Shown here one piece after another: positions 34,832 through 49,833 of a stretch of DNA of 62,142 nt. A model generated the notes under the pieces. The model was not told the origin of the DNA and ran no database searches. It saw only the letters and a list, made by a program, of their open reading frames with translations. The stretch's first letter is position 1. The number at the start of each line of letters is the position of its first letter. Both the position numbers and the translations under genes were made by a program. The DNA comes from a bacterium (GTDB lineage: Bacteria > Actinomycetota > Acidimicrobiia > Acidimicrobiales > CATQHL01), in the NCBI GenBank assembly GCA_026706565.1, contig JAPOYM010000071.1, positions 1-62,142 on the forward strand, given 5' to 3'.

Positions 34832-34847
34832 TGGACTGACTTTGCTG
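34832..34847 (+). promoter_or_regulatory. -24/-12-like motif copy 1: TGGACTGACTTTGCTG
   Basis: TGGAC-N5-TTGCTG, 83 nt upstream of the small ORF at 34930. Confidence 0.35.
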
Positions 34848-34929
34848 TAGGGAGGGTCGACGTTCGATTCACCGTCGACCGCGGCAACTCCGCGGCTGGC
34901 TCGAGCGACCTACCGAAAGGAACGACTCC

Positions 34930-35112
34930 ATGTCAGTTTTCTCCTCCCTCTTCCGCTTCGGCTTCCGGTGCGGGCTGATTCTTGCGCTCCTGCTGTACCT
35001 GGCCATCGGCCGGGGCGGGTGCGCTGGCGGCAATTTCGCCCTCCATGACGCCTCGCCCGACACTCCGACCGCGGTCACCGCTGATCCTCCGACAGCCCCG
35101 CACCTCCCCTGA
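34930..35112 (+). CDS. small hydrophobic/secreted peptide (60 aa), hypothetical
   Basis: SD GAAAGGA lies 8 nt before the ATG. The N-terminus is signal/TM-like: MSVFSSLFRFGFRCGLILALLLYLAIGRGGCAG. Confidence 0.4.
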   Translation: MSVFSSLFRFGFRCGLILALLLYLAIGRGGCAGGNFALHDASPDTPTAVTADPPTAPHLP

Positions 35113-35122
35113 GGGGACGCCC

Positions 35123-35138
35123 TGGACGCGCCTTGCTG
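35123..35138 (+). promoter_or_regulatory. -24/-12-like motif copy 2: TGGACGCGCCTTGCTG
   Basis: Same motif, also sharing TTGCTGTAGG with copy 1. A 10-bp perfect hairpin follows. Confidence 0.35.
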
Positions 35139-35185: not shown

Positions 35186-35211
35186 GAGCTGCGGCAGGGC
35201 GGCCGCAGCTC
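35186..35211 (+). terminator. perfect 10-bp stem / 6-nt loop hairpin (GAGCTGCGGC-AGGGCG-GCCGCAGCTC)
   Basis: Complementarity checked base by base. No U-tract is present. It lies 48 nt after motif copy 2. Confidence 0.3.
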
Positions 35212-35257: not shown

Positions 35258-35273
35258 TGGACGCTGCTTGCTG
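35258..35273 (+). promoter_or_regulatory. -24/-12-like motif copy 3: TGGACGCTGCTTGCTG
   Basis: Same motif, 102 nt upstream of the small ORF at 35375 and 278 nt upstream of the gene at 35551. Confidence 0.35.
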
Positions 35274-35374: not shown

Positions 35375-35446
35375 ATGGCCGCCGAAGACGAGAAGCCCAG
35401 CGCGCCGGTCGACGTGGACACCATCCCCGCCGGCACGTTCCACTAG
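35375..35446 (+). CDS. 23-aa small ORF (MAAEDEKPSAPVDVDTIPAGTFH), hypothetical
   Basis: Strong SD AGAAAGGAGGG lies 6 nt before the ATG. There is no homology evidence. Confidence 0.35.
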   Translation: MAAEDEKPSAPVDVDTIPAGTFH

Positions 35447-35550: not shown

Positions 35551-36810
35551 ATGGAACCGACCCTCGAAACGTTCGGGCTCAGCCAGCCCGCCGAGCTGTT
35601 GCAGATGCCGTGGCTCGCGGCCTTGGCCGCCGCTGTGGTGATTTCCGGTTTGCTGCTGGCGCGGCACCGCTCCGGCAAGCGACTGGTGCGAGGCTCCAGC
35701 GCTTGGAGCGCTCGCCGCCGGCGCCCGAACAACAACCAACGCAAGATCCAACCCGAGGACTATGTGAAGGCCGGCGTCATCGGCATCGGCCACGACCTAG
35801 CCCATGCGGTCACCAAGGACCGGTCGGAAATCGCCGCCGGAGAGGCAAAGATCGCCGCCCTTCAGGAGCAAGAGGCCCGACACCTCCAGGAAATAGACCG
35901 CCTGACCGAACAGCGCGCATCCGACGATACGCGCTTCGACGCGGAGATCGAAGCGGTGAGGGAGAACTTCGCCGCCGAGGACAACGCCCCGGCAGCGATG
36001 ACCAAGAAGTGGAGCACACTCTGGGGCGGATTCTTCCTCCTAGGTGACGTCTTCGTCGTCTCACAGGCGATCATGGTGCAAGAAGGCACGGTCACGCCGG
36101 TGATTGCGTACGGCACAGCGATCGCCATTTCCCTCATGATGTGGTTTGCGGGCAAATGGCTGGGCTGCGAGTTGCGCCGCTTCCGGATGGCCCAGAAGGC
36201 CGCAAGAGTCATCGTCCCGGTGGTTCTCGTTCTGTTGGTCGTGTCGGGCGCGCTGTACGTGATGCGAACCGGTGACACCAGAGCTTGGATCGCGCTCGCA
36301 CTGGCGCCTCCACTGGGAACCGCCGCCACGAAGGTCCTCGGTCCGACAGCCAGCCAAGCCAAAGTCGCAACGCTGAGCCGCGCTAAGGAATCCGAACGAG
36401 CATCGACGCAGGGAAAGATCGACGCTCAGCGGTCGAAGATCGAGCAGAGCCTCAACGCCCGCGGCGAAGCCGCAGTCAACTGTGCCCAACGGCGGGAACA
36501 CATCCTGAGCCGGACCGACGCCGAGAAGCTGCGAGCCAAGGCCGTGTTCCACCAGGGCGGCTTCAACCCGCACAACCCGGACTACTGGATCACGCTCAAC
36601 CAGGCGGGATTCTCCGTCGAGGCCCCCGTGGACACATGCCCCCACGACCCCGACTACTGGGACATCCCCGCCAGCGCCGGTCTCCATGCGCGCCCGCGGG
36701 CAGTCGCCGCGCAGGGCCCGGGGGGCCCGCCGAACGGCATCCACCCCGCGGACGCGCCGCCGACGGTCGCGGCAACGAACGGCGCCCAGCCCGCAGGCAC
36801 CCCGGCCTGA
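35551..36810 (+). CDS. membrane protein with coiled-coil segments (about 5 TM), hypothetical
   Basis: SD GAAAGGA lies 7 nt before the ATG at 35551. It has an N-terminal TM, a coiled coil (AKIAALQEQEARHLQEIDRLTEQ), four clustered TM helices, a second coiled coil and a Pro-rich tail. Confidence 0.7.
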   Translation: MEPTLETFGLSQPAELLQMPWLAALAAAVVISGLLLARHRSGKRLVRGSSAWSARRRRPNNNQRKIQPEDYVKAGVIGIGHDLAHAVTKDRSEIAAGEAKIAALQEQEARHLQEIDRLTEQRASDDTRFDAEIEAVRENFAAEDNAPAAMTKKWSTLWGGFFLLGDVFVVSQAIMVQEGTVTPVIAYGTAIAISLMMWFAGKWLGCELRRFRMAQKAARVIVPVVLVLLVVSGALYVMRTGDTRAWIALALAPPLGTAATKVLGPTASQAKVATLSRAKESERASTQGKIDAQRSKIEQSLNARGEAAVNCAQRREHILSRTDAEKLRAKAVFHQGGFNPHNPDYWITLNQAGFSVEAPVDTCPHDPDYWDIPASAGLHARPRAVAAQGPGGPPNGIHPADAPPTVAATNGAQPAGTPA

Positions 36811-36858: not shown

Positions 36859-37665
36859 ATGAACAGGAGCCGACCAGAGCGCGCTCCCCTCGCTCCGAGA
36901 ATGGCCGCGGCGACGCTGGCGGCGCTCCTCGGCCTTGTGTCGCTCGCCTGCGACGCGGGCGGCTTGGCAAGCGCCGCCAAAGACACGGTCAAGGAGAACA
37001 CCGTAGGCGTCAACGACCCCGGAGTGCGCCGAACGATCATCATCGATCCGGGGCACCGCCCGGTTGACCAGATCCTCGACCAGGTTCACGCCGTGGCCGT
37101 CGACAGCGCCTCCCGCGGGCAACGCATCACGGTCCGGCTCGTCGGCGGAGGCAACGCCGACGCTTGGCGGGCCGTGGACCTGTCATCGGCGCACGGCGGA
37201 GACCTCCGGCGCGAGGCCCAGAACCCCACCCACCTTCGCAAGGAAGCCAACGCCAACGCCGAGGCCGTGACGGCCGCCGTCGCCGCGGCGCTCCGCGGAT
37301 TCGCCTACGACGGCAGCGGCGCGGACCTCTTCGGCGCCATCCGACGAGCCGCGACAGACCCGGTCCTGCCCCGAGAGGTCGTAATGGTCACCGGCGGGGG
37401 CGTTCACCAGACCGCCGCGCTCGACACCGTGAGCGGCTACGGGAACCTGCCGCGACTGCTCGACGCCATCCCAGCGATCGAAGCCCCCGAGACCGACGTC
37501 GTAATCATCGGCGCGGGCGACTTCACCGGGGCTGCGACCACCCCATCGGGAGAGTTCAGCGCCGCGGTCGCCGAACTCTGGGATCACGCCTGCGCCCGCT
37601 GGCGACTCCGCACGTGCGCGCTCGCAGACAATCCCGACTATCTCGCCACGCTCGAGAGCCGATAG
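36859..37665 (+). CDS. lipoprotein, hypothetical (possibly degenerate vWA-like alpha/beta fold)
   Basis: SD GAAAGGA; lipobox LVSLAC; alternating beta-strand-like segments (TIIIDPG, VVMVTGGG, VVIIGAGD). Confidence 0.65.
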   Translation: MNRSRPERAPLAPRMAAATLAALLGLVSLACDAGGLASAAKDTVKENTVGVNDPGVRRTIIIDPGHRPVDQILDQVHAVAVDSASRGQRITVRLVGGGNADAWRAVDLSSAHGGDLRREAQNPTHLRKEANANAEAVTAAVAAALRGFAYDGSGADLFGAIRRAATDPVLPREVVMVTGGGVHQTAALDTVSGYGNLPRLLDAIPAIEAPETDVVIIGAGDFTGAATTPSGEFSAAVAELWDHACARWRLRTCALADNPDYLATLESR

Positions 37666-37670
37666 CCCCG

Positions 37671-39284
37671 ATGGCCGCAACAAGACGCTGGAGCCGCGTC
37701 CGAGAACTCGCCCGCCGGGCCGACCGGCAGCACGAGTCCCCAGCACTCGGTCCCAGCGTCCGCCCCACCGACACGCACCTCGCCGGGGGCCACCCACGCG
37801 TCCGCGTCGTCGGTCCCAGCGACGGCCGACGGGACGCGGTGCGGATCGCCGAGCCGGCGTACACCGAAGCCATCGCGTCGCTCGGCGGTCTGCCCGCCGA
37901 AGCGGGCGGGCCCCTCGGCGGCGACCACCGCACGGGCATCGTCTCAGAGTTCTACCTCGACGAGTCCGCGCGGCGCGACGAGCACAGTTACTCCCCCGAC
38001 GTAGAGACCCTGAACCGGCTCTTCCGCACACAGTGGAACCCCCGGGGCCTATCTCTGCTCGGCTTCGCGCACTCGCACCCCCCGGGCGTGCCGGTGCCTT
38101 CGACCGGCGACCGGCGATACGCCCGAAGACTCCTCGCCGCCCTTCCCTCCCTGGACCGACTCCAGCTGCCCATCGTCGAACAGTCCCGCGTCGGCAACCA
38201 CATAGCCCGGGGTTTCGCCGTCGTCGACGACGGTTCATCGCTGCCGGCGGCGCAGCGAGTCTCCCTCGACACGGTCCCCGACTGCCCGACGCGCCGCGAG
38301 CCCGACCCCGCGACGTTCCTCCGAGCCTCGACCAGCTACGAGTTGGCGATCATGGCCAACACCCGCGTCGTGCTCGTCGGAGTCGGAGGGGCCGCCCAGC
38401 ACGCCGAGCACTTGGCGCGGTGCGGCATCGGCGAACTCGTCCTCGTCGATCCGGACCGGGTGGAGCCCCCGAACGTTGCAACCCAACAGGCCTATCTGCG
38501 GGACGCGGGGCGATCGAAGGTCGGCGCCCTCGCCGAACGCCTCACCGACATCAGCCCAATCCTGCGCGTCGCCGCGGTGCCCCACAGCGTCCAACAGCTA
38601 GATCTCCCGACACTGCGAATGCTGCTGCATCGGCCGTTGTTCCCCGGCGAGCCGATCGCTCCCAGACTCACGGTCACATGCGGATTCACCGACGACTTCT
38701 GGACGCAGGCCGAGGTCGCTCGCATCGCGTTGCAGGAAGGCACACCCCTGCTCGCGGGCCAAGTCTACGAGCAAGGATGCGGGGCGGAGATCGTCTTCGT
38801 GGCGCCGGGCCACACCGCCGCCTGTCACCGATGCGTCCTCGGCTCTCGCTACTACTCCTATCTGGCCGGGTTCCGCAACGACGTCACCAGCGCCGGCGCA
38901 CCTCTGTTCGCCACCGAGAGGCTCAACGCAACCAAAGCGATCGTGATGATGGCGATGGTCCACGGACTGCACCCCGACGCGGACCGCGGCCACCCCGCCA
39001 CCGCGAGATTCTCGACGCTGTTCGAGACCATCCGCGAGCGGAACCTCATCCAGATCCGCCTCACCCCTGACTTCGAGTCGATCCTCGGCGTCAGCGTCTT
39101 CGAGCGCACACTCACCGGCGCCGACAGCACACGCGTCGTCTGCGACGAGACCCTCTGGCACCCCCAGACACCGACTGCCCATCCCCCCTGCCCCGATTGC
39201 GGCGGCACCGGCGACCTCGCACAACTCGCCGGCACCAACATCGCCCCCCTGACGCGACCTGAGAACACGGAGAGGACACCATGA
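37671..39284 (+). CDS. JAB/JAMM metallopeptidase fused to an E1-like (ThiF/MoeB-family) adenylation domain
   Basis: The JAMM motif is intact: E(AGGPLGG)...HSHPPGVPVPSTGD, which fits HxHx7Sx2D (38070-38111). E1 Rossmann VVLVGVGGAAQH...LVLVDPDRVEPPNV. Cys pairs CHRC and CPDC. Confidence 0.8.
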   Translation: MAATRRWSRVRELARRADRQHESPALGPSVRPTDTHLAGGHPRVRVVGPSDGRRDAVRIAEPAYTEAIASLGGLPAEAGGPLGGDHRTGIVSEFYLDESARRDEHSYSPDVETLNRLFRTQWNPRGLSLLGFAHSHPPGVPVPSTGDRRYARRLLAALPSLDRLQLPIVEQSRVGNHIARGFAVVDDGSSLPAAQRVSLDTVPDCPTRREPDPATFLRASTSYELAIMANTRVVLVGVGGAAQHAEHLARCGIGELVLVDPDRVEPPNVATQQAYLRDAGRSKVGALAERLTDISPILRVAAVPHSVQQLDLPTLRMLLHRPLFPGEPIAPRLTVTCGFTDDFWTQAEVARIALQEGTPLLAGQVYEQGCGAEIVFVAPGHTAACHRCVLGSRYYSYLAGFRNDVTSAGAPLFATERLNATKAIVMMAMVHGLHPDADRGHPATARFSTLFETIRERNLIQIRLTPDFESILGVSVFERTLTGADSTRVVCDETLWHPQTPTAHPPCPDCGGTGDLAQLAGTNIAPLTRPENTERTP

Positions 39285-39619
39285 CCACCGTATTGGAGAA
39301 CATCAAGTACCGAGCCTCGAACGGTGAGGACTTCATGTTCGACTTCGAACTGCGCGACGACGGTTGGCGCGTGCACATAACCAGCCAACCCCGCTACCGC
39401 CACCGGAGCGCGAGCGCGCACGACACTCACCGCCTCGGCCGGGCTGAACGTCCCTACATCTGCTGGACCAACCCGATAAACGGACTCGACGACGCCTTCG
39501 GCGTCGCCGCCCTGTGGGCGGAAGCGACCCTCGTGTACATCGCGACCGGTCGCTTCAACGCGCCGCGCCGCTTACCGCGACTCCACGATCTCACCGGACT
39601 CACCCGGCTCAGCCGCTAG
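39281..39619 (+). CDS. small conserved-looking protein, possible E2(UBC)-like with HDTH...PYICW
   Basis: ATGA overlap with the JAB-E1 gene. 112 aa. The H-x-x-H...x-I-C-W spacing recalls HPN...C of UBC folds. The call is weak. Confidence 0.3.
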   Translation: MTTVLENIKYRASNGEDFMFDFELRDDGWRVHITSQPRYRHRSASAHDTHRLGRAERPYICWTNPINGLDDAFGVAALWAEATLVYIATGRFNAPRRLPRLHDLTGLTRLSR

Positions 39620-39652
39620 CCCCCGATCAATCCACCCCGAAAGGACGATCCC

Positions 39653-40381
39653 ATGGCCCGTCAACGCCCCACCCTGTTCCTCGAGACCAACGACTGGGAC
39701 ACTCACACCGCGCCGCGCCGATGGTTGGCCGTGATCCCCGTCATCGCGCTGGTCGTCGCCGCCGCCGCCATGTGGCAGCTCAACCGCCCCGAGCCGATCG
39801 GGGCGGCCTCGACCCTGCCGGTCTGCGACTCTGACCACCCGCACCTAACCGTTGTTGTCCTCGATGTCTCGCCGTCGGTGATCAGCGCGGACGGCGCCGA
39901 CCCCGACGGTCGCAGCTTCGACGAAGCCCGAGAGCTCGCGCGGCTGCTTGCCGCCGACCCCTGCACCCCCGACGACCGGTTCGCCGCCATCGTGTTCGGC
40001 GCAGAAGCGATTCTGCAAATGCCGCCGACACTGCTGTCGCAGAGCAGCGACATCGCCGCCGGCCTCCGCAACCAGGGCTACGCCAACCTCGGGGACTCCA
40101 CCGACATCTCAGCCTCAATCCGCACGGTGGACTCCATCGCATCCGATCATCCGCACCACGAACTCTCAGCCATCTGGCTCTCAGACATGATGGGAGACCC
40201 GTTCACCGAACAACACCTCCGAACCCTCGCCGCCGAGCACGCCTACCTCGTCGCGCTCGGTGACTACGACCCGTACTTCAACCAGTACTTCGACGCAGTC
40301 CACGAGATCGTCACGGTCAAACCCGGTGCCGTCGCACACGCACTCACCGAGAGCATCTCCCGCACCCGCGGCGCGCCCTGA
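39653..40381 (+). CDS. membrane-anchored von Willebrand factor type A (vWA) domain protein
   Basis: N-terminal TM (WLAVIPVIALVVAAAAMW). MIDAS-like VVVLDVSPSV (DxSxS at 39863-39877). Further vWA strands: AAIVFG and AIWLSD. Confidence 0.65.
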   Translation: MARQRPTLFLETNDWDTHTAPRRWLAVIPVIALVVAAAAMWQLNRPEPIGAASTLPVCDSDHPHLTVVVLDVSPSVISADGADPDGRSFDEARELARLLAADPCTPDDRFAAIVFGAEAILQMPPTLLSQSSDIAAGLRNQGYANLGDSTDISASIRTVDSIASDHPHHELSAIWLSDMMGDPFTEQHLRTLAAEHAYLVALGDYDPYFNQYFDAVHEIVTVKPGAVAHALTESISRTRGAP

Positions 40382-40434
40382 CCACCAACCACCGAACATC
40401 CAGCCACCAGACGCGAAAGGAAACCTCCACCGAC

Positions 40435-41781
40435 ATGAATTGCGCCAACATCCCGCGCCTCATCCGCAGCACCGCGATCGCGTCCGCAGTCGCCGTCATC
40501 GCGCTCGCCTGCGACCCCGATCACGCCACAACCCACGACACCAGCCCGGCCGAACGGGTCGCCGAACAGGCAGGCGAACAGGCAGCCGGCACCGTCGCGG
40601 CCGGCAGGACCGCTCTTCCCGAAGCGGTCGTGCTCCCCACCGGAATTCCCGGCATCAGCGAACTCACTCCACCAACACCGGACACCGTCGTCCCGCCACC
40701 CCCCGACCCCGCACCGGCGGCGCCCACAAGCGACCCCCCCGTCGTCCCGCCACCCCCCGACCCCGCACCGGCGGCGCCCACAAGCGACCCCCCCGTCGAC
40801 CGCCCACCGCCGACGTCCGCAACCGAACCGGATGCACCCCCGGTCGCCCCCGACCTTCCGCCATCCACGGCCGGACCGCCCGAGCCCGCGCCCCCGCCAC
40901 CGCCCGCAGACCCCGAACCCCATACCTGCGTCGCCTACCGCATAGACGACGTGCTCTTCAACAGCGCCGCCGCGGAACTCGCCCCCGGCGCCGAGGACAG
41001 CCTCGCCGCCGTCGCCGCGCTAATCGCCGACGACGCCCGAGTCTCCGTCATCGGCCACACCGACTCGCTGCCGTCAGCGATCGGCAACCAGCGACTGTCC
41101 GAACTCCGCGCCCAGACTGTCGCCGAGGCCCTGATCGGCGCGGGCCTGAACCCCGAATCGGTGACCGAGATCGCCGGCAGAGGCGAAACCGAACCCATCG
41201 CCGACAACGGCACCGACGAAGGCCGGCGCCTCAACCGGCGCGTCGAGGTATACATCAACTGCGCCGCCCGACAACACCGAAGCGCCGCGTCCGAAGCAGG
41301 CCGAGGCAGCGCCGCTGCGAACCCGACCACCCCCGCAGACCCGACGACCGACGACCCCGAGGCCGTGCCAGCGGGCCCCAGAAGCGAACCCGAGGCCGAT
41401 ATGCTAGGCATGGTCGGCGAGTTCCGAGCGGACCTCGAACTGCAGCCACTTCTGCACCATCAACAGCTAGCATCCGTCGCCCGTGCCTGGTCAGCCACAA
41501 TGGACACAACCGGACGGCTAGAGCACAATCCTGACTACACAAACCAGTATCCCACGGGTTGGCTGTCAGCTGCCGAGAACATCGCGTTCGTAACAGTACC
41601 CACAACCTCACCAGAATCGCTCGCAGAGGCAACCATGATCGCCTTCCAAGGACTTGTCAACAGCCCACCGCACTACAAGAACCTCACCAACCCGACGTTC
41701 ACCCACATAGGAATCGGCATACACCTAAGCACCGATACCCTGTGGGTAACCCAGAACTTCGCGCACTATCCACCCGAATAG
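40435..41781 (+). CDS. lipoprotein with Pro-rich linker, OmpA-family peptidoglycan-binding domain and C-terminal CAP/SCP (PR-1-like) domain
   Basis: Lipobox IALAC. OmpA_C motifs: VIGHTDSLPS..GNQRLSELRA..V and NRRVEVYI. CAP motifs: HNPDY, NIAF, SPPHYKNL, THIGIG. Confidence 0.75.
   Translation: MNCANIPRLIRSTAIASAVAVIALACDPDHATTHDTSPAERVAEQAGEQAAGTVAAGRTALPEAVVLPTGIPGISELTPPTPDTVVPPPPDPAPAAPTSDPPVVPPPPDPAPAAPTSDPPVDRPPPTSATEPDAPPVAPDLPPSTAGPPEPAPPPPPADPEPHTCVAYRIDDVLFNSAAAELAPGAEDSLAAVAALIADDARVSVIGHTDSLPSAIGNQRLSELRAQTVAEALIGAGLNPESVTEIAGRGETEPIADNGTDEGRRLNRRVEVYINCAARQHRSAASEAGRGSAAANPTTPADPTTDDPEAVPAGPRSEPEADMLGMVGEFRADLELQPLLHHQQLASVARAWSATMDTTGRLEHNPDYTNQYPTGWLSAAENIAFVTVPTTSPESLAEATMIAFQGLVNSPPHYKNLTNPTFTHIGIGIHLSTDTLWVTQNFAHYPPE
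40687..40794. repeat. perfect 54-bp tandem duplication (18-aa VVPPPPDPAPAAPTSDPP x2) inside the linker
   Basis: 40687-40740 is the same as 40741-40794 by eye. Confidence 0.85.
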
Positions 41782-41786: not shown

Positions 41787-44700
41787 ATGTCACCCAGCGC
41801 CTCGTCGCGGCTCGACCAGCACCACCTCGCATCGCTGCACAAACTCACCGACGAGCACCTAATCAAGCTCCTCAATGAGATCCTTCCGCTGAAATGCGCT
41901 CACGGCTCCGTCGAAGCGGAACGCCTGGAATGGCATGACCCATGCTGGGAGACACGCCCCGCCTTGAAGCGCGTGCGACGATTGTCCCTAGAACTCTCCG
42001 TCAACAACCCCAACGGGCGTAGCCGTAGCAGGGTCACCCTGCCGTTTCTCTGGCCATTGGGCGAGGAGGCTTGCGCCGAACCGTACCCGCTAGAATATGT
42101 GCGCCTCGGCGGCCCTGCGACGTTCATCGACGCGCTACCGAAGGTGGCGGTAAGCCAAAGAACGTACCGTCCCGGGTTGCACTTGTTTCGTCACGATTTC
42201 CGCTACTCGGGTCGTCAATATTCGGGCCGACGACTAGTTCTTATGCCGGACATCGGCCCGAGCATACGAATCTACAAAACAAGCATCGGACGAGATCAGA
42301 CAAGCAGTGAATTCGACCCAGCTCCAGACGACCACGCGCCTCCACTCGCCAAGTCGCCCCCAAGGTCGTCGTTCCGAGTGTCGATCTATGGGCTAGGAAG
42401 CGGGACAGCTGTCTTTGAGAATGCCGAACTCATTGGTTGCGCCGATTCCGGCCAGACTCGCGCGCCTCACGGGACGCCCCATACCGCTAACCTAGGGGCC
42501 CTCTGTGATCGTCTCCTAGGACAGAATCGACCCCCCTTGGCATTTTTCTCGGACGCGACAAGGGAGCGGATCTCCGAAGCGGGAATACGACTCGACGATT
42601 CCAGCTTACAGGACCTATGCGGCCTCTTGTTCAGCTTGGATAAGGATGGAGCTGAACCTCCGGAGTATGGACATGAACTCTCCGAAGCGACTCTCCGGAC
42701 GCAGCACCACGGCGACATACTGGAGTCGATTCTTGTGGAATCGCTGCTAGCGGCTGTGGAGCGATTCCATCTCGGCAAGCCCGATCAGGCCGCGGCGCTC
42801 GGCTCTCTACTGAAGTCCATGTTCCAGCAGATTTACAACCGGATGCATCGCGGCGGAGACCGCCAGCCTGCACTGCTGGTGACCGACGACGACCGTAACA
42901 CGCTCGCCAACCTCGAGGCCCGGCGAAAGACGACTCGATACAGTCCCGAGATTCCCCGAGAGATTCGGTACTGGCTCTGGACCCGTGACATCGACCCAAG
43001 CGACCGTCGCCGTCTCTGCCCGCTCCAAACTCCCGAGTCAGCCGACCTTGGATACGTGCGATTCTTGGCCCTCGGAGATGGATATGCCGACGAGCACTCA
43101 GGGATCGCCGATCTTGACGCGCCCGACTTGGACCTTGACTCGAGCGACTTGAGCGCCGCCGCCTCGCTCATTCCGTTCATCAATCACAACGACCCGACGC
43201 GCTCGGCCATCGGCTCAAAGAACCTGAAGCAGGCGCTGCCACTCGCAGGGGCGAGCGCGCCGCGAATCCGGTCGGGCACCGAAGCGGCCCTCGCCGAAGC
43301 ACACGGCACGGCCCGTCTGCCCGCAGGGCCCGACGCGACTGTTCTAGAGGTATTCGAGGACCGGATCATCGTGCAGCGCCAGGAAGGCGCCCCGCGTGGG
43401 GCGGAAGTCCTACCGTTCGGCTACCCGCACCCCACCGGCCACACCGCCGACGGGCGCTGGAAACTGCTCACGACACCCGGCGACACCCTCAGCGCAGGAA
43501 CCGTGTTCGCGCACGCCCCCGACGTCGTCATCGACTGCGGCGAACCCACTCTCGCTCTCGGCACCGACGTGCTCGTGGCGTTCACGCCCTGGTTGGGGAT
43601 GAACTACGAGGACGCCATCGTCGCCAGTGAGGCTGTCGTCGACCGGATGGCTTCGTTGCATTCTCTTCGCATCACCGAGCCGCTCGGCGCCTATGAGACT
43701 CTGCGGCCGTCGGTCGAGGCGGGTGCCGAGGTCGTCGCCGGCGACGAACTGCTGAAGATCCTCGGCCCCGACTCGAAGACGCGTCGCTCCGTCGTCGCCC
43801 CCGAGTCCGGAGTCCTTGAGGAGGGCCCGCGCGTCGAACCGGTCATCGGCCCTCGTGAGAGCGGTGACAGTGACGACGCGGTCTCGGGCGAGATCGTCAT
43901 CCGGCTCAGGACCAGCAGGCGTCTCGCGGTCGGGGACAAGCTAACCAACCGCCATGGCGGCAAGGGGGTGGTTTCTGCGATCCTGCCCCCATCGAGCATG
44001 CCGAAACTCCCCGACGGACGCCACGTTGAGATGATTCTCAACCCGCTCGGAGTGATCCGGCGTTTGAACATCGGCCAACTGTTTGAGACCCATGAGAGCC
44101 TGCTCGCCGACCTCGAGGAGGGCGGACCCCGCATCGTCGGCCGCCGGATGAGCCCGCAGCGTCGGGGCGAACTCGCCTCCGCCCTGGCCGAGCGTGGCGC
44201 CCCGGGCGGGCGGCTGGTGCTGGAATGCGCCGACGGCACCGTGCTGGACCGCCACGGCGGCGTTGTCGCGGGTTGGCAGTACATGCTGAAACTGGACCAC
44301 CTGGTGGCGGACAAGCGCAACGAGCGTCTCGCGGCGTTCGCCGGGCCGCGCGACCGGCAGCCCGTCCGCGGCTCGACGTTCGCCGGCGGCGTCCGGCGGG
44401 GAGGCGCCAAACGTTGCGGCGAAATGGAGATCTGGGCCCTTCGGGCCAAGGGCGCATCAGAGTTCTTGGATGAGACCCTCACTGCACGCAGCGGTTTCGC
44501 CCCCGGCACGAATCCCACCCTCGCCAGCGTCGACGCCCACCTGAGAACTGCCCAACTCGCTGTTGACCACACCACCGGGGCGGTCAAGCTACTGGACGCA
44601 CGAGACACCAAGGCCCTGGCGCCCGTCATCTGCGAGGAGATCACCGAACCTACGACGAACACTCCCCAGTACGCCTCCGCCGCCAGCCACGGCCTCTACC

Positions 44701-47222
44701 GCCCCGATTGCCACGGTGACTTCGAGAAGGCCGGAGCATCTTGTGCCTGCGGTTCCGTGTGGCAATCCGGCGCCAGATGCGCGTCCTGCCACACGACGCC
44801 CCGACCCGACCCACACCCGGAGCGCTTGGCGGTGCGATACCACATCAAGTTGCCGGCACCGGTGAAGCATCCGTGGTTCCGGCCGTCGCCGAGTCAAGGC
44901 GCAAGCTCTTGCGTAGCCTCGCGCATTCATCGCGAACACCGCCGGGCTGCCGAGCTCGAGCACCTGTGCTGTGCGAATCATGATCCGGACGTCGTTCGGC
45001 ACCGTGACGAGAACGGTCGATCCTCCGCGCTCGAACGCGTTCGGGAATCGCTCGCCGAAGAGGGTCACCAACCGATTGCGATGACCCACGACTGTCGTCG
45101 CGCGCGATTGTACGTGTTCACCGACCGTGGCCGACTCGCGGAGTTCGACCTTGCCGAAGGCGCGGCGGGGGACTTCGTGCGGGATTGGTTCATCGAGCAC
45201 CGACGCGCCGGGAATCCCGAATTGCCCCCGGATGATGTCCAGTTCCTTGCGCTCGAACCCAACGGATTCCCGGTCATCAACTACGGCAAGGACGACCAGA
45301 GCAGGGATATTCTCCGGACCGCCACTCCGGCGTTGCACGTCGTTCCGATACTGCCCCCGGCCTATCGCAGGTTCGGGTACGAACCCCTTGACACCCTCTA
45401 CGAGCGACTCATCCGTCTAGTCGCTCTGGTGGAAGAGAACCGAGAGGCGGCAGTGATGGGGGTGGAACGGCAACTTGTTCGGGCCATCCTCGGCGGACCG
45501 ACCGACAAGCCGGATCACGGCACCATTTCCGGTCGGCTGAACGGCAAGCACGGCCTGATTCGCCGTGGACTGAGAGGACGGCACAACAACTCTGTCGCCC
45601 GAAACGTCATCACGCCCCAGACAACGCTCGGCCTCGAGGAGGTCGGGCTGCCGTCTGGCACCATGGCGGAGCTCCAACTCCGCGACGGGGACGTCGTTGT
45701 CGTCAATCGCCAGCCCACCCTACGCCCATCGAACGTCGTGGCGCTACGCGCCAGGGCCCACGACGGTGACCACGTCGCACTTCACCCAATGATGTCGAAG
45801 CAGTTGGCCGGCGACTTCGACGGCGACGAAGTCACGTTGCACTGCCCCAGCGACGGACAGGTGGCGGTCGACACCTGGAGGCGTCTCAGACCTACGAGCG
45901 AACTCCTCAACGACACCGATGGTCAGCCCACCATGGCGCCCGACCTCGACGTCGCCCTCGGAGTCCACCTTCTCTCGATGTCGGATGCCGGTCGCGTCGA
46001 ACTCTCGAAGCTCCTGGACGGTGGCGAGCAGCCGGCCGGCAACGGGTCAGCCGGAGTCGAGTCCGCTGTCGGCGCGGACCAAGCCGTCGAACTGGTCCGG
46101 GCCGCCTACAGTGCCCTCGCAATCGATCCAGAACGCGACCCTTGCGCGGTCATCGAGGCGCTCTTCGAGGCGACGACCCGCGCCTGCCTGGGTTGGTCCG
46201 CTTCGCTGCTCGACGACGCGTTCCTGGAAGACGGCGCGCGGCTGAGGATGCTGGAACGTACCGGCAACGACGAACTGGACGGTCCTCGGTCCGACTGGCT
46301 CGACGAGGCGATCGCAGCAGGCGTCGCGGGAGGGGCAGGCGGTCTGCGCCAACTATTCGTCGAACGCGGCAGCCTCCCGACCTTCACACCCGGCAAGTCG
46401 ACGCCGCGAGTCGGGTCGTGCTTCCTCGACGGCCTCTCGTCCGGCGACGTCTTCGCGACAGCTCCCGGGGCGCTGGCCGCGCTGGTCCAGAAGAAGCTCG
46501 TGACGCCTCAGGCAGGACACGTCACAAAACGGCTGGCAGACGCGCTGTACGACTTTGTCGTGGCAGCGGAGGATTGCGGCGTCGGGCCCGATGCCACAGG
46601 ACACCGCGACGCTCTTCATTGCGCCCTCGACGGATCTTGCTGCGCGGCGTGCGTCGGCCCGCTCCCCTCGGGCAGGAGCGCAGATGTCGGGGATTTCATC
46701 GGGCTGCGAGCCGCGATGCTGATCGGCGAACGCTGCACCCAGAAAGCCATGAAGACCTTCCACGGAGGCGGCACCAGCGACGACGTCCGCGGCATTGTGC
46801 CCGAACTCGAGGCAGCGTTCGGCTTTCGCGCCAACCACCCGCAGGAGTCAGGGCTCTCGTTCAGGGACGCATTGAAGGCCGACGATCCTCCAGCGACGCT
46901 ACGCCGTCTCGCCGGACAGACCGCCGCGGCCCTCGATGGCGGCGTGCATGAATCCTTGATCTGCATAGCTCTGAGGCGGGTACACGACCTCGCCCGACAA
47001 GCCGAAGCGGAGGCCGCTGTCGGTCCGCTCCCTCGGGTGCCCGCAGGACCGAACAACCAAGCCGCCAGAGCGAATCCACTCCTGCACGCATCCACCATTG
47101 GGCACCTTCGACCCATCCTGGATTCCGTCGAATGGCCGGTACGCCACGGCCCTTCCGGCCAGCAGTTGCGCGATGCCTACTGGCCCGTCGCCCGTCCTGC
47201 CCGACCCGAAGCCAGGCGGTGA
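41787..47222 (+). CDS. single-chain RNA polymerase: fused, shortened beta (RpoB-like) + beta-prime (RpoC-like) homologue, 1811 aa
   Basis: Beta motifs occur in canonical order: KVAVSQRTYRPGL (cf ERVIVSQLHRSPGV), CPLQTPESADLGYV (cf CPIETPEG.NIGLI), SLIPFINHNDPTRSAIGSKNLKQALPL, NYEDAIV, GDKLTNRHGGKGVV (43932-43973), LNPLGVIRRLNIGQLFETH, YMLKLDHLVADK and CGEMEIWAL. Beta-prime motifs follow: Zn ribbon CHG..CACG..CASC, HIKLPAPVKHPWF, VPILPPAYRRF, NGKHGLIRRGLRGRHNNSVARNVI, NRQPTLRPS, AGDFDGDEV (DFDGD at 45813-45827), a bridge-helix-like GHVTKRLADALYDFVVAAEDCG, and a trigger-loop-like LIGERCTQKAMKTFHGGG. Confidence 0.85.
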   Translation: MSPSASSRLDQHHLASLHKLTDEHLIKLLNEILPLKCAHGSVEAERLEWHDPCWETRPALKRVRRLSLELSVNNPNGRSRSRVTLPFLWPLGEEACAEPYPLEYVRLGGPATFIDALPKVAVSQRTYRPGLHLFRHDFRYSGRQYSGRRLVLMPDIGPSIRIYKTSIGRDQTSSEFDPAPDDHAPPLAKSPPRSSFRVSIYGLGSGTAVFENAELIGCADSGQTRAPHGTPHTANLGALCDRLLGQNRPPLAFFSDATRERISEAGIRLDDSSLQDLCGLLFSLDKDGAEPPEYGHELSEATLRTQHHGDILESILVESLLAAVERFHLGKPDQAAALGSLLKSMFQQIYNRMHRGGDRQPALLVTDDDRNTLANLEARRKTTRYSPEIPREIRYWLWTRDIDPSDRRRLCPLQTPESADLGYVRFLALGDGYADEHSGIADLDAPDLDLDSSDLSAAASLIPFINHNDPTRSAIGSKNLKQALPLAGASAPRIRSGTEAALAEAHGTARLPAGPDATVLEVFEDRIIVQRQEGAPRGAEVLPFGYPHPTGHTADGRWKLLTTPGDTLSAGTVFAHAPDVVIDCGEPTLALGTDVLVAFTPWLGMNYEDAIVASEAVVDRMASLHSLRITEPLGAYETLRPSVEAGAEVVAGDELLKILGPDSKTRRSVVAPESGVLEEGPRVEPVIGPRESGDSDDAVSGEIVIRLRTSRRLAVGDKLTNRHGGKGVVSAILPPSSMPKLPDGRHVEMILNPLGVIRRLNIGQLFETHESLLADLEEGGPRIVGRRMSPQRRGELASALAERGAPGGRLVLECADGTVLDRHGGVVAGWQYMLKLDHLVADKRNERLAAFAGPRDRQPVRGSTFAGGVRRGGAKRCGEMEIWALRAKGASEFLDETLTARSGFAPGTNPTLASVDAHLRTAQLAVDHTTGAVKLLDARDTKALAPVICEEITEPTTNTPQYASAASHGLYRPDCHGDFEKAGASCACGSVWQSGARCASCHTTPRPDPHPERLAVRYHIKLPAPVKHPWFRPSPSQGASSCVASRIHREHRRAAELEHLCCANHDPDVVRHRDENGRSSALERVRESLAEEGHQPIAMTHDCRRARLYVFTDRGRLAEFDLAEGAAGDFVRDWFIEHRRAGNPELPPDDVQFLALEPNGFPVINYGKDDQSRDILRTATPALHVVPILPPAYRRFGYEPLDTLYERLIRLVALVEENREAAVMGVERQLVRAILGGPTDKPDHGTISGRLNGKHGLIRRGLRGRHNNSVARNVITPQTTLGLEEVGLPSGTMAELQLRDGDVVVVNRQPTLRPSNVVALRARAHDGDHVALHPMMSKQLAGDFDGDEVTLHCPSDGQVAVDTWRRLRPTSELLNDTDGQPTMAPDLDVALGVHLLSMSDAGRVELSKLLDGGEQPAGNGSAGVESAVGADQAVELVRAAYSALAIDPERDPCAVIEALFEATTRACLGWSASLLDDAFLEDGARLRMLERTGNDELDGPRSDWLDEAIAAGVAGGAGGLRQLFVERGSLPTFTPGKSTPRVGSCFLDGLSSGDVFATAPGALAALVQKKLVTPQAGHVTKRLADALYDFVVAAEDCGVGPDATGHRDALHCALDGSCCAACVGPLPSGRSADVGDFIGLRAAMLIGERCTQKAMKTFHGGGTSDDVRGIVPELEAAFGFRANHPQESGLSFRDALKADDPPATLRRLAGQTAAALDGGVHESLICIALRRVHDLARQAEAEAAVGPLPRVPAGPNNQAARANPLLHASTIGHLRPILDSVEWPVRHGPSGQQLRDAYWPVARPARPEARR

Positions 47223-48268
47223 CTGAATTGATCACCTCCGGAGTGCGAGCGGGGCGCGACCGGCGACGCAGCGCAAAGCCAGACACCGATGCTCTCACAC
47301 AACCGAACGCTCGCCGCCTAGCTCGAGTCCTGGTATCCACTATTGCTTCACCGACTGCACACGAGATCCAGCACCTCGATAGCGACGAACCGCTTGATGA
47401 CGATCCCTTGGATATGGTGCCCGACGGCTGGGAGGACGAAGAGCCGGATGCTCCGACGGCCTTCGACGAGGCGTCGCCGACGGCCTCGGGCCGCACTGCC
47501 CCACCCACAGCGGTTCTTGAGTTCTTCGTCCGCCCGGGGCCGCTGTCGGATGTCGCCGTCGAGGTGAACGCTCCGCTGCCCCAAGAGCATCACCTCGGAG
47601 TGGCTGGGCTTCCGCTGGTTCAAGCCGAATGGTTGGAACGACGTCGACACCTTGAGGCCGTCGGCGTCTGCATCCTGAACCGTCAACTACCCGCCATTCA
47701 GTCGACCGACCCGCGTCATGCCTACAGATCCTTGCGCCCGATGACCAACGCTGATTTGAACGAATCCGCTGGCACACGCGGCTCGGGCTGGGCTTCCCGC
47801 AATCGGACGGCTCCGGTCGCCTGCCCCTGGGGCCTCGTTCGACTGGAGTTCTTCACTTGGGGGATCGGTCCCGGACGCGTCGCCGTGTACGAAGCGCTGC
47901 TCAACGCTGTGTTGATTGACGGCGCTGCCGGTGGAGACACCGCCATCGCCCGCGACGCGCGCGACCAAGCCATAGCGGCTCTCGAAACATCGTCCGACTC
48001 TGCTCTGAGGCAGTCGACGCTCTCAGAGCAGGCACGCACGCAGCTCCCAGCTCTCGACAGCGTCCGTAAGTTGGTTTCCGTCGCTCGTTCGCTGGGAGCA
48101 CCTCAGACCTCCGCCTACATCGCGACCCTTCGACGCGACTCATTGTTCTGGAGCGACGACCTAATCGGAGCTAACGCCATGCTCGCCTCATCGCTTAGCG
48201 ACAGAGGCCTCCAGTTGGCAAGGTTCGCCGTGGCTGGATGGGAGGGGGGCAAGCAGTGGATGCCTTGA
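47219..48268 (+). CDS. sigma-54 (RpoN)-like protein, divergent and shortened (349 aa)
   Basis: GTG at 47219 overlaps the polymerase stop (GTGA). There is an acidic N-terminal segment. LERRRHLEAVGVCILNRQ, LRPMTNADLNE and SRNRTAPVACPWGLVRLEFF align by eye with E. coli RpoN LEARNDTLLRVSRCIVEQQ, MKPMVLADIAQ and [22 protein letters not shown]. Confidence 0.7.
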   Translation: MTELITSGVRAGRDRRRSAKPDTDALTQPNARRLARVLVSTIASPTAHEIQHLDSDEPLDDDPLDMVPDGWEDEEPDAPTAFDEASPTASGRTAPPTAVLEFFVRPGPLSDVAVEVNAPLPQEHHLGVAGLPLVQAEWLERRRHLEAVGVCILNRQLPAIQSTDPRHAYRSLRPMTNADLNESAGTRGSGWASRNRTAPVACPWGLVRLEFFTWGIGPGRVAVYEALLNAVLIDGAAGGDTAIARDARDQAIAALETSSDSALRQSTLSEQARTQLPALDSVRKLVSVARSLGAPQTSAYIATLRRDSLFWSDDLIGANAMLASSLSDRGLQLARFAVAGWEGGKQWMP

Positions 48269-49833
48269 CGATCGACGCGCCAGGCAAGGACTTGAGCGTC
48301 GCGATAGATCAAATCAACAATGGCGACCCACTTGAGGTCCGTCTTCGTTGGAACGACGAGCACGCCGAGCAGTTCAGCGAACTGTTGAAGGTCGCCGATG
48401 AGAACCGGGTCTCCGTCACCGTAGAGTTCGACACACTCCGGCCGAGCCATCTCTCCGATGTGATCTTCCGCTACCGGTACCCTCGGCCCGCGGTCACCGC
48501 CAAGAGGAACGTCACCGACGAGCGCAATCTCGCCATCGGCAGCACCCTACCGATGCCGGCTGACCCTCTCGACTACGAGAACGCGCGCGGAATGTCGCTG
48601 GTGTCTGAGGCCATGCAGGAGTTCATCCAGGAGCTGCGTGATGCGTTGTGGGTTATGCGAGCACATAAGCAGGCCCCGAGGATGCCGTGGGATCCGTTGG
48701 ATGGACAGAGGTCGGATATTCGTTACGCAAAGGACAACTCCCCCACCCTTCAGGATTGGGGCTTCCCCAATCTCTCCGCGGTCTTCGAATGTTACAACGA
48801 GAGGAATCGGGGCCACCTCCGGAGGCTCTTCGGCCATGCCAACGACGGTGTCCGACCCAATTCGGCCCGCGAGCCGGGGTGGGACTGGAACATCAAGCTG
48901 CTCGTGACAGGCGACAGCGGCACCGGCAAGTCGCTCGTTGCTCGCCTTGCACACCGCGTGCTGTACCCCGACGACCATCACAAACGCTATTTCGCTCACC
49001 TGAACTGCAGCACCCTCGACGCGCAGAACGCCGAGTTCGAGATCTTCGGCGCCGCCCCCGGCACCTACACCGGCGTCGACCATCGGGTCGGGGCCTTGGC
49101 GAGAGCCGCCTACGGCACAGCGTTCCTAGACGAGTTCGGTGACCTGCCCCCAGGGACTGGGCCGATTCTCCTCACCTTCTTGGACGATCTTCTGGTCCGG
49201 CCACGAGGGATGATGCAGTTCTTCTCCTACAGCTACGTGGTCGCCGCCACGAATCGCGACCTGAGCGCCCGGATACGAGCCGGCGAGTTCCGAAACGACC
49301 TAGTCCAACGCTTCAGCCGCCGCATCGAGGTGCCCCCACTGCGCCGCCGCGGCCGAGCCGAGATCCTGGCCCTAGTGGACATGGCCTGCCAGAACCCCAT
49401 CGAGAACCCGATCGAGACCTTCCGAGGAAAAGAAGGCCGAGCAATAACCGAGGTCGCCCCGCCTGCCCTCTCCATGCTCGCCAGCCACGATTATGCCGAC
49501 GGCAACGTCCGAGAGCTAGAAGCGATCACACACCAGGCTATCCAACGAGCAAAGCGCCGAAACTCCTCGCTCATCGAGCCGATTGATCTCGACATTCCCA
49601 AGCATCCGAATTACCGCCCCGACGCCGACCAGAACGTCATCCGCGTAGGCGCACTCCCCGACCTGGATCAGCAAGTCGAGGTCGAGAGTCTCCAAGACAT
49701 CGCCCATCTAGCCCAACTAACACGCCAACCGCTCCTACAAGCACCCGACAACACGTACGCCGTCATCCATGGCAGCACCGGATACTACTACCGTCCGCCT
49801 CGGCCCCGTCCCCTGCCATTTCGACACGAGTGA
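48256..49833 (+). CDS. bacterial enhancer-binding-protein-like AAA+ ATPase (sigma54-interaction domain) with an unknown N-terminal domain
   Basis: SD GGAGGGGGG lies 6 nt before the GTG at 48256 (alternative ATG at 48238). Walker A GDSGTGKS (48910-48933), GTYTGV in the GAFTGA position (49060-49077), Walker B AFLDEF, AATNRDL, FRNDLVQRF...VPPLRRR, and GNVRELE sensor II. Confidence 0.8.
   Translation: MDALTIDAPGKDLSVAIDQINNGDPLEVRLRWNDEHAEQFSELLKVADENRVSVTVEFDTLRPSHLSDVIFRYRYPRPAVTAKRNVTDERNLAIGSTLPMPADPLDYENARGMSLVSEAMQEFIQELRDALWVMRAHKQAPRMPWDPLDGQRSDIRYAKDNSPTLQDWGFPNLSAVFECYNERNRGHLRRLFGHANDGVRPNSAREPGWDWNIKLLVTGDSGTGKSLVARLAHRVLYPDDHHKRYFAHLNCSTLDAQNAEFEIFGAAPGTYTGVDHRVGALARAAYGTAFLDEFGDLPPGTGPILLTFLDDLLVRPRGMMQFFSYSYVVAATNRDLSARIRAGEFRNDLVQRFSRRIEVPPLRRRGRAEILALVDMACQNPIENPIETFRGKEGRAITEVAPPALSMLASHDYADGNVRELEAITHQAIQRAKRRNSSLIEPIDLDIPKHPNYRPDADQNVIRVGALPDLDQQVEVESLQDIAHLAQLTRQPLLQAPDNTYAVIHGSTGYYYRPPRPRPLPFRHE

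Follow-up and report, generated by a model that had tools for sequence, protein, structure and literature searches.

A single-chain RNA polymerase encoded with a putative sigma54-like factor and a sigma54-type activator in a bacterial genomic island

Can a genomic island carry its own transcription apparatus, with a polymerase, a promoter-recognition factor and an ATP-driven activator encoded side by side? This question is raised by an eleven-gene operon at positions 34930-49833 of contig JAPOYM010000071.1 (assembly GCA_026706565.1), a stretch of 62,142 nucleotides (nt) that we analyzed as a whole and refer to as the window. The last three genes of the operon form its core:

41787-47222, + strand: single-chain RNA polymerase (RNAP) of 1811 amino acids (aa), from Pfam and Protein Data Bank (PDB) matches
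47219-48268, + strand: X, a putative divergent sigma54-like factor of 349 aa, from profile and fold evidence
48253-49833, + strand: AAA+ activator resembling bacterial enhancer-binding proteins (bEBPs), from Pfam Sigma54_activat

Our answer, to which we assign a probability of about 60%, is that these genes make up a self-contained transcription module of the enhancer-dependent (sigma54) type, serving an island gained by horizontal transfer.

The first line of support is the linkage of the three genes. A search of 5.8 billion protein clusters identifies about 24 relatives of the fused RNAP, with lengths of 1477-2077 aa. A scan of genome contigs with a single protein found nothing, and an alignment-based genome scan (patterns AGDFDGD and GEMEIWAL) found only housekeeping rpoB-rpoC loci, at ~30% identity. 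We compared ten loci, i.e. the window and nine retrieved loci (designated by L numbers) with flanks of up to 10 kb on each side. In all ten the genes for the RNAP, the sigma54-like protein and the bEBP-like protein occur together and in the same order, at RNAP identities of 29-52%, and their stop and start codons usually overlap. The middle gene in each of the nine retrieved loci encodes a protein of 250-430 aa without Pfam matches. In an all-against-all BLAST comparison the RNAPs of all ten loci group together, as do their AAA+ proteins and the middle proteins of seven loci, and the remaining middle proteins are linked by hidden Markov model comparison.

The initial annotation of the window had proposed a fused beta/beta' RNAP, and we find matches to both subunits in one chain. 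Pfam places Rpb2_6 (3e-39), Rpb2_7, Rpb1_2 (9e-15) and Rpb1_5 within the 1811 residues, and a PDB sequence search matches the N-terminal half to bacterial beta (best E 1.3e-52) and the C-terminal half to beta' (7e-28). Residues 368-429, 455-677, 703-774 and 826-915 correspond to residues 516-577, 661-902, 1050-1121 and 1225-1308 of E. coli beta, respectively, and residues ~960-1665 correspond to beta' 34-943, of which the family profile covers 34-817 and 879-943. The sequences GDKLTNRHGGKG and AGDFDGD (core DFDGD) are invariant in 22 family members, and in the same 22 proteins the HPWF motif, the LPPxYR lid motif and the cysteines of the beta' zinc ribbon do not vary. Conservation extends over the Lys/Arg/His motif of beta, the catalytic Asp triad, the Zn ribbon and the bridge-helix/trigger-loop region. 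The first ~367 residues are family-specific, with no detectable relative and no similarity to beta 1-515. Compared to the ~2750 aa of E. coli beta plus beta', the protein has lost the beta lobes and several beta' domains. An rpoA- or rpoZ-like gene is present in no locus examined. Since the catalytic motifs are invariant across the family, the sequence describes a trimmed, single-chain core of the bacterial type that is apparently competent.

The public annotation of the polymerase gene is a 1459-aa hypothetical protein (MCY3785956.1). We prefer the 1811-aa reading because the N-terminal residues omitted in the shorter version are conserved in the family. The longer open reading frame (ORF) is also backed by other cluster members and by the family alignment, and it starts 5 nt past the stop codon of the preceding gene. 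Two known classes of polymerase were considered and rejected. A YonO-type enzyme is ruled out by how strongly the protein resembles the cellular subunits beta (1.3e-52) and beta' (7e-28), and a score of 215 bits against a cut-off of 5372 bits rules out a housekeeping fusion of the Helicobacter type. All NCBIfam RNAP model scores are far under their cut-offs.

The third core protein had been described as bEBP-like, and this holds. It matches Sigma54_activat (PF00158) at 8.6e-28, with 97.6 bits against a cut-off of 20.2 bits, and its 35 PDB matches are sigma54 activators without exception. Walker A (GDSGTGKS), Walker B (FLDEFGD) and the arginine finger (FRNDLVQRF) are present. The L1 loop reads PGTYTGV in place of GAFTGA; over seven loci it follows G-x-[YW]-T-[GDS]-V (also PG[TNQ]YTGV), in which [YW]T and the Val are invariant. 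The AAA+ domain belongs unambiguously to the sigma54-activator class. The ~200 N-terminal and ~90 C-terminal residues are conserved in the family and match nothing known in Pfam or the PDB.

For X, which had been read as sigma54-like, Pfam offers no support, and the evidence comes from profile and fold comparisons. A profile of X matches nothing among PDB sequences, and a Foldseek search of its model against viral structures gives nothing. In homologue searches a single X sequence recovered the query alone and a 7-sequence profile recovered the query and three others (the L086 protein and two that are closely related to it); neither search recovered the X proteins already seen in related loci. 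An exhaustive profile search of 1.84 billion representatives gives 29 X-family clusters of 249-434 aa, none of them canonical RpoN. As a sigma54 reference we used an alignment of 8 sequences, E. coli rpoN and plasmid-borne rpoN genes. With 7 X sequences, hhalign finds a single match to this reference (E 6.3e-4), which spans the pre-HTH helix, the helix-turn-helix (HTH) itself and the PxGxxxLxxFF segment. With 34 X sequences the match improves to E 6.9e-5 at 63% probability, covers E. coli sigma54 residues 327-461 and reaches from the extra-long helix (ELH)-HTH through the RpoN-box position. Pfam Sigma54_DBD is weakly matched by 2 of the 34 X-family members (best E 0.004), and the ORF that takes the place of X beside the distant fused RNAP of L179 has a weak match to Sigma54_AID, under the cut-off (E 0.018).

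The predicted fold points in the same direction. An AlphaFold2 model of X from a 31-sequence alignment has a mean confidence (pLDDT) of 79.5 and a predicted TM-score (pTM) of 0.76, compared to a pLDDT of 31 from a 4-sequence alignment. The top 16 matches of this model in the PDB are all sigma54/sigmaN chains, with probabilities of 0.47-1.00 (at least 0.92 for 13 of the 16) and E-values of 0.03-0.5; unrelated folds follow from E 1.5. The predicted N-terminal helix (residues 28-48), followed by an acidic disordered linker, would fit the Region I-Region II layout of sigma54. X is ~130 aa shorter than RpoN, and the fold overlap of up to 230-300 columns is poor (root-mean-square deviation 9-23). 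No single one of these results is decisive, and we treat X as a divergent, shortened relative of sigma54 because the independent results all point to that family.

The promoter motif provides the remaining support. Motifs resembling the -24/-12 elements of sigma54 promoters had been noted upstream, and TGGAC-N5-TTGCTG occurs exactly at 34832, 35123 and 35258, in all three cases on the + strand and within 430 base pairs (bp) at the operon head. In shuffled sequences 0.04 copies are expected, and none of 100 shuffles reaches three. Scores in the following list are from a position weight matrix (PWM); ORF1 is the first gene of the operon.

34832-34847, + strand: putative promoter P1, TGGACTGACTTTGCTG, sigma54-like -24/-12, 85 nt upstream of ORF1
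35123-35138, + strand: putative promoter P2, TGGACGCGCCTTGCTG, with an identical 17-mer in L177 at 17484
35258-35273, + strand: putative promoter P3, TGGACGCTGCTTGCTG, the top PWM score of the window
34608-34623, + strand: weak extra copy, TGGACGCGATCTGCTG, with one mismatch, within the 5' end of the DHDPS gene, which runs divergently (PWM score 19.5)
35186-35211, + strand: perfect 10-bp GC-rich hairpin between P2 and P3
34644-34720, no strand assigned: 23-nt inverted repeat ~110-190 bp upstream of P1, candidate enhancer

The motif is shared beyond the window. TGGAC-N5-TTGC is found at operon or sub-operon heads in L001, L083, L084 and L085, and the fuller form yTGGACGC-N3-TTGCT lies upstream of, and co-oriented with, island genes in six loci, five of them related loci. 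The PWM was built from 11 sites, with none taken from L177. It detects more than 20 matches in the related loci, all of them between genes and in the orientation of the gene that follows; 41-122 nt separate most of these sites from the start codon. Two sites in L083 precede minus-strand genes, for a HerA/TrwB-like ATPase and an SLH-subtilase. L177 has two strong sites, one located 41 nt before the RNAP gene (9947) and one before a small ORF. On both strands of the 62-kb window the five best scores all fall in the island, after which the score drops from 17 to 11. The strict pattern is enriched 14-fold in the family loci and is absent from 620 kb of unrelated high-GC loci. Its consensus, yTGGACGC-N3-TTGCT, equals the sigma54 consensus TGGCACG-N4-TTGCW minus one base. 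Scans for sigma70-type promoters and terminators do not rise above shuffled expectation, and the window contains no Rfam families or tRNAs.

Further elements lie close to these promoters. No ORF preceded by a Shine-Dalgarno (SD) sequence lies between P2 and P3, and the hairpin stretch behind P2 is possibly a short RNA, an attenuator or a terminator of ORF1. A third copy of GACTCGGTC occurs at 34801-34818; with the inverted repeat it spans 30-190 bp upstream of P1 as a candidate enhancer. In L001 another shared element, CTGAACGAGCGGCGTCYGC, lies ~70-90 nt upstream of both promoters and is a candidate enhancer. A motif match with a score of 18, CTCGACGGATCTTGCTG, falls inside the RNAP coding region (46627-46642) and could be an internal promoter for the X and bEBP genes or a chance occurrence. 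About 10 nt past TTGCT, several promoters have a second conserved block, GGACTTGACC, GAGATTGACC, GAACTTGGCC or GGAATTGAAC (L001 1792-1810; L084 2723-2745 and 5265-5285; L083 22450-22470, - strand; L085 4216-4235; L082 6155-6175), which is not obvious in the window's own promoters.

A number of observations weigh against a sigma54-type module. For X, the Foldseek E-values are only 0.03-0.5 with TM-scores of ~0.3, Sigma54_CBD has no sequence match in the 34 members at E ≤ 10, Region I is not detected by sequence, and the RpoN box ARRTVAKYR is not conserved but aligns with SVRKLV. The activator has no HTH_8 by Pfam and no recognizable DNA-binding domain, and the enhancer sites are only guessed, the repeats at 34644-34720 being a candidate activator-binding site; PspF-like activators work without bound enhancers too. 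In the promoters the GG-GC distance is 9 nt compared to 10 nt, one base off all known sigma54 promoters. The motif has no copy in the distant loci L086, L176, L178 and L179, as would be expected had the specificity of their sigma-like factors drifted, nor is there one before the HD-CE gene described below. The polymerase might still require host alpha and omega or use host sigma factors. As to a role in defense, PADLOC matches no defense model beyond single domains, restricted to the E1 core of the JAB-E1 protein introduced below.

What would such a module transcribe? Upstream of the core, the operon comprises eight more genes:

34930-35112, + strand: ORF1, 60 aa, small hydrophobic, signal-peptide- or membrane-like, with a GAAAGGA SD
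35375-35446, + strand: ORF2, 23-aa micro-peptide MAAEDEKPSAPVDVDTIPAGTFH, core conserved and in tandem in related loci
35551-36810, + strand: coiled-coil multi-pass membrane protein, 419 aa, orthologues in six loci
36859-37665, + strand: lipoprotein-like protein, 268 aa, signal peptide ending ...SLAC, orthologues in six loci
37671-39284, + strand: JAB (JAMM) peptidase fused to an E1-like ThiF domain (JAB-E1), from Pfam Prok-JAB and ThiF
39281-39619, + strand: 112-aa protein, always after JAB-E1, with an invariant Cys in RPYICW
39653-40381, + strand: N-terminal transmembrane (TM) helix and von Willebrand factor A (vWA) domain, 242 aa, Pfam VWA_2, orthologues in six loci
40435-41781, + strand: lipoprotein-like OmpA (peptidoglycan-binding) and CAP/SCP protein with a Pro-rich linker, 448 aa, from Pfam

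The eleven ORFs are co-directional and tightly packed, as the initial annotation had it, and the two small ORFs at the head are preceded by SD sequences as claimed; the same ribosome-binding site, GAAAGGA, stands before ORF1, ORF2 and the gene for the coiled-coil membrane protein. Seven of the eight reported spacings are exact: 48 nt from the end of the coiled-coil protein gene (36810) to the lipoprotein gene (36859), 5 nt on to JAB-E1 (37665 to 37671), -4 to the 112-aa ORF (39284 to 39281), 33 nt to TM-vWA (39619 to 39653), 53 nt to OmpA-CAP (40381 to 40435), 5 nt to the RNAP gene (41781 to 41787) and -4 to X (47222 to 47219). The eighth, -13 between X and the bEBP gene, is wrong, as position 48256 is a GAT codon. 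The bEBP gene likely starts at the GTG at 48253, with an overlap of 16 nt with X; we prefer this start because the ribosome-binding site GGGAGGGGGG precedes it and because it aligns with the N-termini of homologues. An ATG at 48238, with an overlap of 31 nt, is the other possible start.

Of the domain types proposed for the operon, Pfam finds JAB, ThiF, VWA, OmpA, CAP, Rpb2/Rpb1 and Sigma54_activat, and it assigns no family to the coiled-coil membrane protein, the lipoprotein-like protein, the 112-aa protein or X. In JAB-E1, Prok-JAB (1.3e-7) and ThiF (5.7e-19) are both matched, and neither the HSHPxGxxxPSxGD motif nor any of the four zinc cysteines varies. There is also a weak match, under the cut-off, to the GTPase-associated adaptor domain (GAAD; E 0.012, residues 432-461, 39100-39190), a domain described from NTP-dependent conflict systems. 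VWA_2 (6.8e-7) lies behind the TM helix of the vWA protein, and OmpA (8e-17) and CAP (1.3e-13) are matched in the last envelope protein. The suggestion that the 112-aa protein might be E2-like finds no support: hhalign against E2-CBASS gives E 0.17, and the protein has no Pfam or PDB match. Neither a CD-NTase nor a ubiquitin-like protein (Ubl) was found in the window.

These genes are partly shared within the family. In the closer clade, with RNAP identities of 44-52%, the coiled-coil, lipoprotein-like, TM-vWA and OmpA genes are common to six loci, and JAB-E1 with a protein of ~115 aa is common to five. JAB/E1 modules occur in 6 of the 10 loci overall, and in the distant L178 JAB and E1 are separate genes adjoining an E2-CBASS gene. 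Other recurrent neighbors are HD-CE proteins, HerA/TrwB-like ATPases, AAA_2 ATPases, ATP-grasp, nSTAND1 and leucine-rich-repeat (LRR) proteins. In L177 (266-9176) the three core genes stand among GmrSD_N, REase-ARP/PDDEXK, SMC_N ATPase and YgjP/SprT genes.

The micro-peptide has a core, (G)(D/E)E[IVL]P[ATP]G[TS]FH(G), or DEIPAGTFH in short, which is found in one to four tandem copies in 6 of the 10 loci; in its strict form it has no match when 2.6 Mb of unrelated loci are translated in all six frames. The peptide of L084 (2768-2875) contains ...DEIPAGTFHAYHS..., that of L083 (~8370-8440) reads ...GGDEIPAGSFHM, and L085 (8318-8485) has four tandem GDEIPAGSFHG units joined by H-G-G. L176 (7057-7167, - strand) reads LVPAGTFPG-GEEVPTGTFHG-GEEVPTGTFH, and L177 (from ~17860) reads ...GGDELPPGT before it is cut by the contig end. 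In the window and in L084 a promoter motif lies directly upstream of the peptide gene, and in L176 the peptide gene abuts those of a 162-aa partner and JAB-E1. This suggests that the peptide may be the substrate of JAB-E1. Alternatively, it could be a ligand of the vWA protein.

On the domain identities, the conserved three-gene core and the conserved promoter motif we would build the following mechanism, for which we infer the binding partners, the ATP dependence, the signal and the biological role. The single-chain polymerase would bind X, and together they would recognize private promoters of the type yTGGACGC-N3-TTGCT. As in sigma54 systems, the complex would remain closed before ATP hydrolysis by its partner, the AAA+ activator. 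A signal sensed by the family-specific N-terminal domain of the activator would let the G-x-[YW]-T-G-V loop of that protein engage X, and the resulting open complex would give a burst of island transcription, producing the DEIPAGTFH peptide, the four envelope proteins and JAB-E1 with its 112-aa partner. Because the polymerase, X and the activator share the operon in this window, the circuit would feed back positively on itself. JAB-E1 might then process the small peptide and activate its C-terminus. The role is most likely a conflict programme, in defense or antagonism, whose expression would be independent of the host polymerase. We favor this role because conflict-type domains are associated with the system across loci, namely E2-CBASS/JAB/ThiF, HD-CE, nSTAND1, LRR and ATP-grasp proteins and GmrSD/REase neighbors.

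The mechanism might be extended further, into a portable orthogonal expression cassette outside the known sigma54 lineages. It would consist of a minimal polymerase, a sigma54-descended factor and a sensor ATPase, and its output would be a tandem-repeat micro-peptide that JAB-E1 cuts out and activates at the C-terminus. Together with an envelope complex, this would form a miniature conjugation system, ubiquitin- or microcin-like, for use in biological conflict. We offer this extension as tentative; we would sooner expect it to fail than to hold.

The setting of the operon bears on the rival explanations, and it includes further genes outside the island operon:

49735-50511, - strand: low-GC (0.53) ORF of 258 aa, convergent, overlapping the non-conserved tail of the bEBP gene by 99 nt
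50523-53099, - strand: HD-CE domain protein, 858 aa, GC 0.54, candidate effector and recurrent neighbor
53398-55188, + strand: STAND-like P-loop ATPase (AAA_22, AAA_16, NPHP3_N) in the inserted segment, of uncertain link to the system

Relatives of the HD-CE protein adjoin the system in L001, L084, L085 and L176. GC content at third codon positions (GC3) is 0.69-0.85 in the operon genes compared to 0.88-0.93 in the flanks. Overall GC is 0.62-0.71 in the operon, 0.53-0.54 in the two convergent genes downstream of it and 68% in the window, and the closer family loci have 63-70%. On either side lie genes of everyday metabolism (TRAP transporter, hydantoinase, P450, SDR and aspartokinase). The genes for DHDPS (33651-34739) and Nuc_deoxyrib_tr (56943-57524), which flank the island here at a distance of 22 kb, are adjacent in L084 (689-2581), and an insertion between them is therefore suggested. 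The system of L084 lies just beyond this same pair, which suggests a variable insertion hot spot. A gene for an AAA_14/DUF4143 ATPase (31029-32306, - strand) is located 2.5 kb upstream of the island. No integrase gene and no gene of phage or plasmid type occurs in the window. In L179 (256-7004), a contig of 42% GC, a distant fused RNAP of 27% identity lies directly downstream of a Phage_integrase gene.

The best tblastn matches of the window's aspartokinase are in actinomycetes, at 50-54% identity. Sigma54 is reported to be effectively absent from Actinomycetota (PMC3162934, PMC12316311). The supplement of the latter study lists divergent 'rpoN' genes in Alloactinosynnema sp. L-07, Citricoccus sp. 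SGAir0253 and Modestobacter marinus, which its authors dismissed; the three match Pfam CBD at 1e-13 to 1e-18 and DBD at 1e-27 to 1e-32 (PMC12316311). These three are closer to RpoN than X is.

The rival that survives best makes the peptide the purpose of the island, which would make, process, export or display it as a signal, a toxin or a covalent tag. JAB would cut the DEIPAGTFH units, E1 would adenylate the C-terminus, and the private polymerase would provide strong gated expression. The occurrence of the core in 6 of 10 loci and its absence, in strict form, from 2.6 Mb of unrelated DNA argue for this, as do the putative promoters that immediately precede the peptide gene in L084 and the window, its position beside the 162-aa partner and JAB-E1 in L176, the ATP-grasp genes in L176 and L086, and the H-G-G links between the tandem units of L085. 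However, no ABC/MFS exporter or immunity gene is conserved, no known RiPP (ribosomally synthesized and post-translationally modified peptide) family is matched, and the action of E1 on the peptide is pure conjecture. The ends are not consistently Asn or Gly-Gly but H, HM, HG or a longer tail, and L001, L082, L086 and L178 contain no such peptide by the patterns used. We consider this explanation possible, if doubtful.

Next is a mobile element or the remnant of one (integrative, conjugative or satellite-like), with its own polymerase for host-independent expression, in which the envelope proteins and the HerA/TrwB-like ATPases would serve DNA transfer. A tyrosine-recombinase gene stands immediately upstream of the fused RNAP gene of L179, an rve transposase gene is found at the edge of L086, and HerA/TrwB/TraG-D_C-like ATPases are encoded in four loci, one of them directly behind the promoter motif. 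The island also has a lower GC3 than its flanks and occupies different sites in related neighborhoods. On the other hand, no integrase, relaxase, replication, capsid or terminase gene is present in the window and the nine loci, within flanks of up to 10 kb, and the window is without a tRNA gene. By the searches run, no family member is found among PLSDB plasmids, INPHARED phages or IMG/VR contigs, and the bEBP alignment retrieves generic AAA+ activators alone from IMG/VR. We regard a mobile element as an unlikely account of the island; peptide-centred and mobile-element functions need not exclude each other. Last, it is very improbable that the polymerase-like protein is an inactive scaffold, a maker of short RNAs or an enzyme acting on invading nucleic acid, with the motif serving as the operator of a conventional regulator: a polymerase short of the beta lobes and several beta' domains and the missing motif in distant loci would fit, but conservation covers the Asp triad of the catalytic site, the Lys/Arg/His motif of beta, the bridge-helix/trigger-loop region and the Zn ribbon, a sigma54-like protein and a sigma54-type activator are encoded in strict linkage with the polymerase, and the motif has the -24/-12 layout at promoter-like distances from start codons.

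If the sigma54-type module is real, it would be the first accessory, chromosome-borne RNAP of the multisubunit type in bacteria with a private sigma factor and activator. As a naturally minimized enzyme it would reveal the parts of the core that sigma54-type initiation can do without, and it would place sigma54-type regulation in high-GC organisms; the metagenome-assembled genome studied here may be from Actinomycetota, in which sigma54 is reported effectively absent. It would offer synthetic biology a compact orthogonal system composed of a polymerase, a sigma factor, an ATP-gated switch and a 15-nt promoter. Transcription independent of the host RNAP would be tied to E1/JAB chemistry, a micro-peptide and the envelope, in an unexplored class of conflict or signaling islands. 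Should the portable cassette be real as well, it would insulate transcription from host shut-off and provide a natural minimal model of enhancer-dependent initiation.

How does the island compare with known systems? The architecture as a whole was not found in the searchable full-text literature, although a brief earlier mention in the 2012 review by Iyer and Aravind is possible, or in the PADLOC and NCBIfam libraries, in agreement with its initial description as apparently new. Profile searches, co-occurrence across loci and the search for an earlier description had been named at the outset as possible grounds for refutation, and none of the three refutes the idea. Each component belongs to a known superfamily and the logic appears to be that of sigma54, but we found no precedent for an accessory fused polymerase combined with its own sigma54-like factor and activator.

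The JAB-E1 part resembles type II CBASS Cap2/Cap3, Bil and 6A-MBL, in which E1 and JAB are encoded in one operon, and L178 even has E2-CBASS. Unlike these, the window has no CD-NTase, recognizable Ubl or E2, and its JAB is fused N-terminal to E1. Matches to these models are to the E1 core alone, far under the family cut-offs. In microcin C (MccA/MccB) and pantocin (PaaP/PaaA) a gene for a tiny peptide likewise adjoins one for a ThiF/E1-like enzyme. MccB and PaaA act on peptides, and the processing of polyubiquitin is a precedent for cleavage into units. The peptide and its C-terminus differ, however, and exporter and immunity genes are missing; the likeness is conceptual only.

Among accessory polymerases, YonO of SPbeta and the NCgl1702-like RNAPs also have both double-psi beta-barrels in one chain encoded by an accessory element and are thought to transcribe that element's own genes. 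In the Bacillus subtilis prophage SPbeta, YonO transcribes the late genes (PMC5467207); it is ~100 kDa in size, very distant from beta/beta', and acts without a known sigma factor (PMC5467207, PMC7824862). We took the definition of the YonO/NCgl1702-like family (~100 kDa, remote similarity, no flap insert) from PMC7824862. In contrast, the island polymerase is ~200 kDa, clearly of the bacterial type, and accompanied by a sigma-like factor and an activator. Its alignment through E. coli beta 661-902 and 1050-1121 flanks and includes the flap region, and the beta' clamp helices are aligned. The non-virion RNAPs (nvRNAPs) of the jumbo phages phiKZ and AR9 belong to the same host-independent two-barrel class and have their own promoters, but they are phage-encoded, comprise 4-5 subunits and lack a sigma54-like factor or AAA+ activator. 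The housekeeping beta-beta' fusions of Helicobacter, Wolinella and Wolbachia are full-length (~2850-2890 aa) and essential (NCBIfam PRK09603, PRK14844). They share with the island polymerase the order of beta and then beta' regions in one chain, whereas the island copy is accessory, has 1811 aa and is without beta 1-515 and several beta' segments.

The closest comparison in logic is with sigma54 and its bEBPs. Those systems use the host core, whereas the island polymerase is dedicated, fused and shortened. Island X is ~130 aa shorter, with the activator-interacting and core-binding domains (AID/CBD) undetectable by sequence, the promoter spacing is one base less, and the activator carries novel sensor domains but not the C-terminal HTH that is otherwise usual. 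In common would be an ELH-HTH/RpoN-type DNA-binding region, as proposed for X, the putative GG...GC promoter elements, a Sigma54_activat AAA+ domain with a loop that resembles GAFTGA, and an activator gene linked to its targets.

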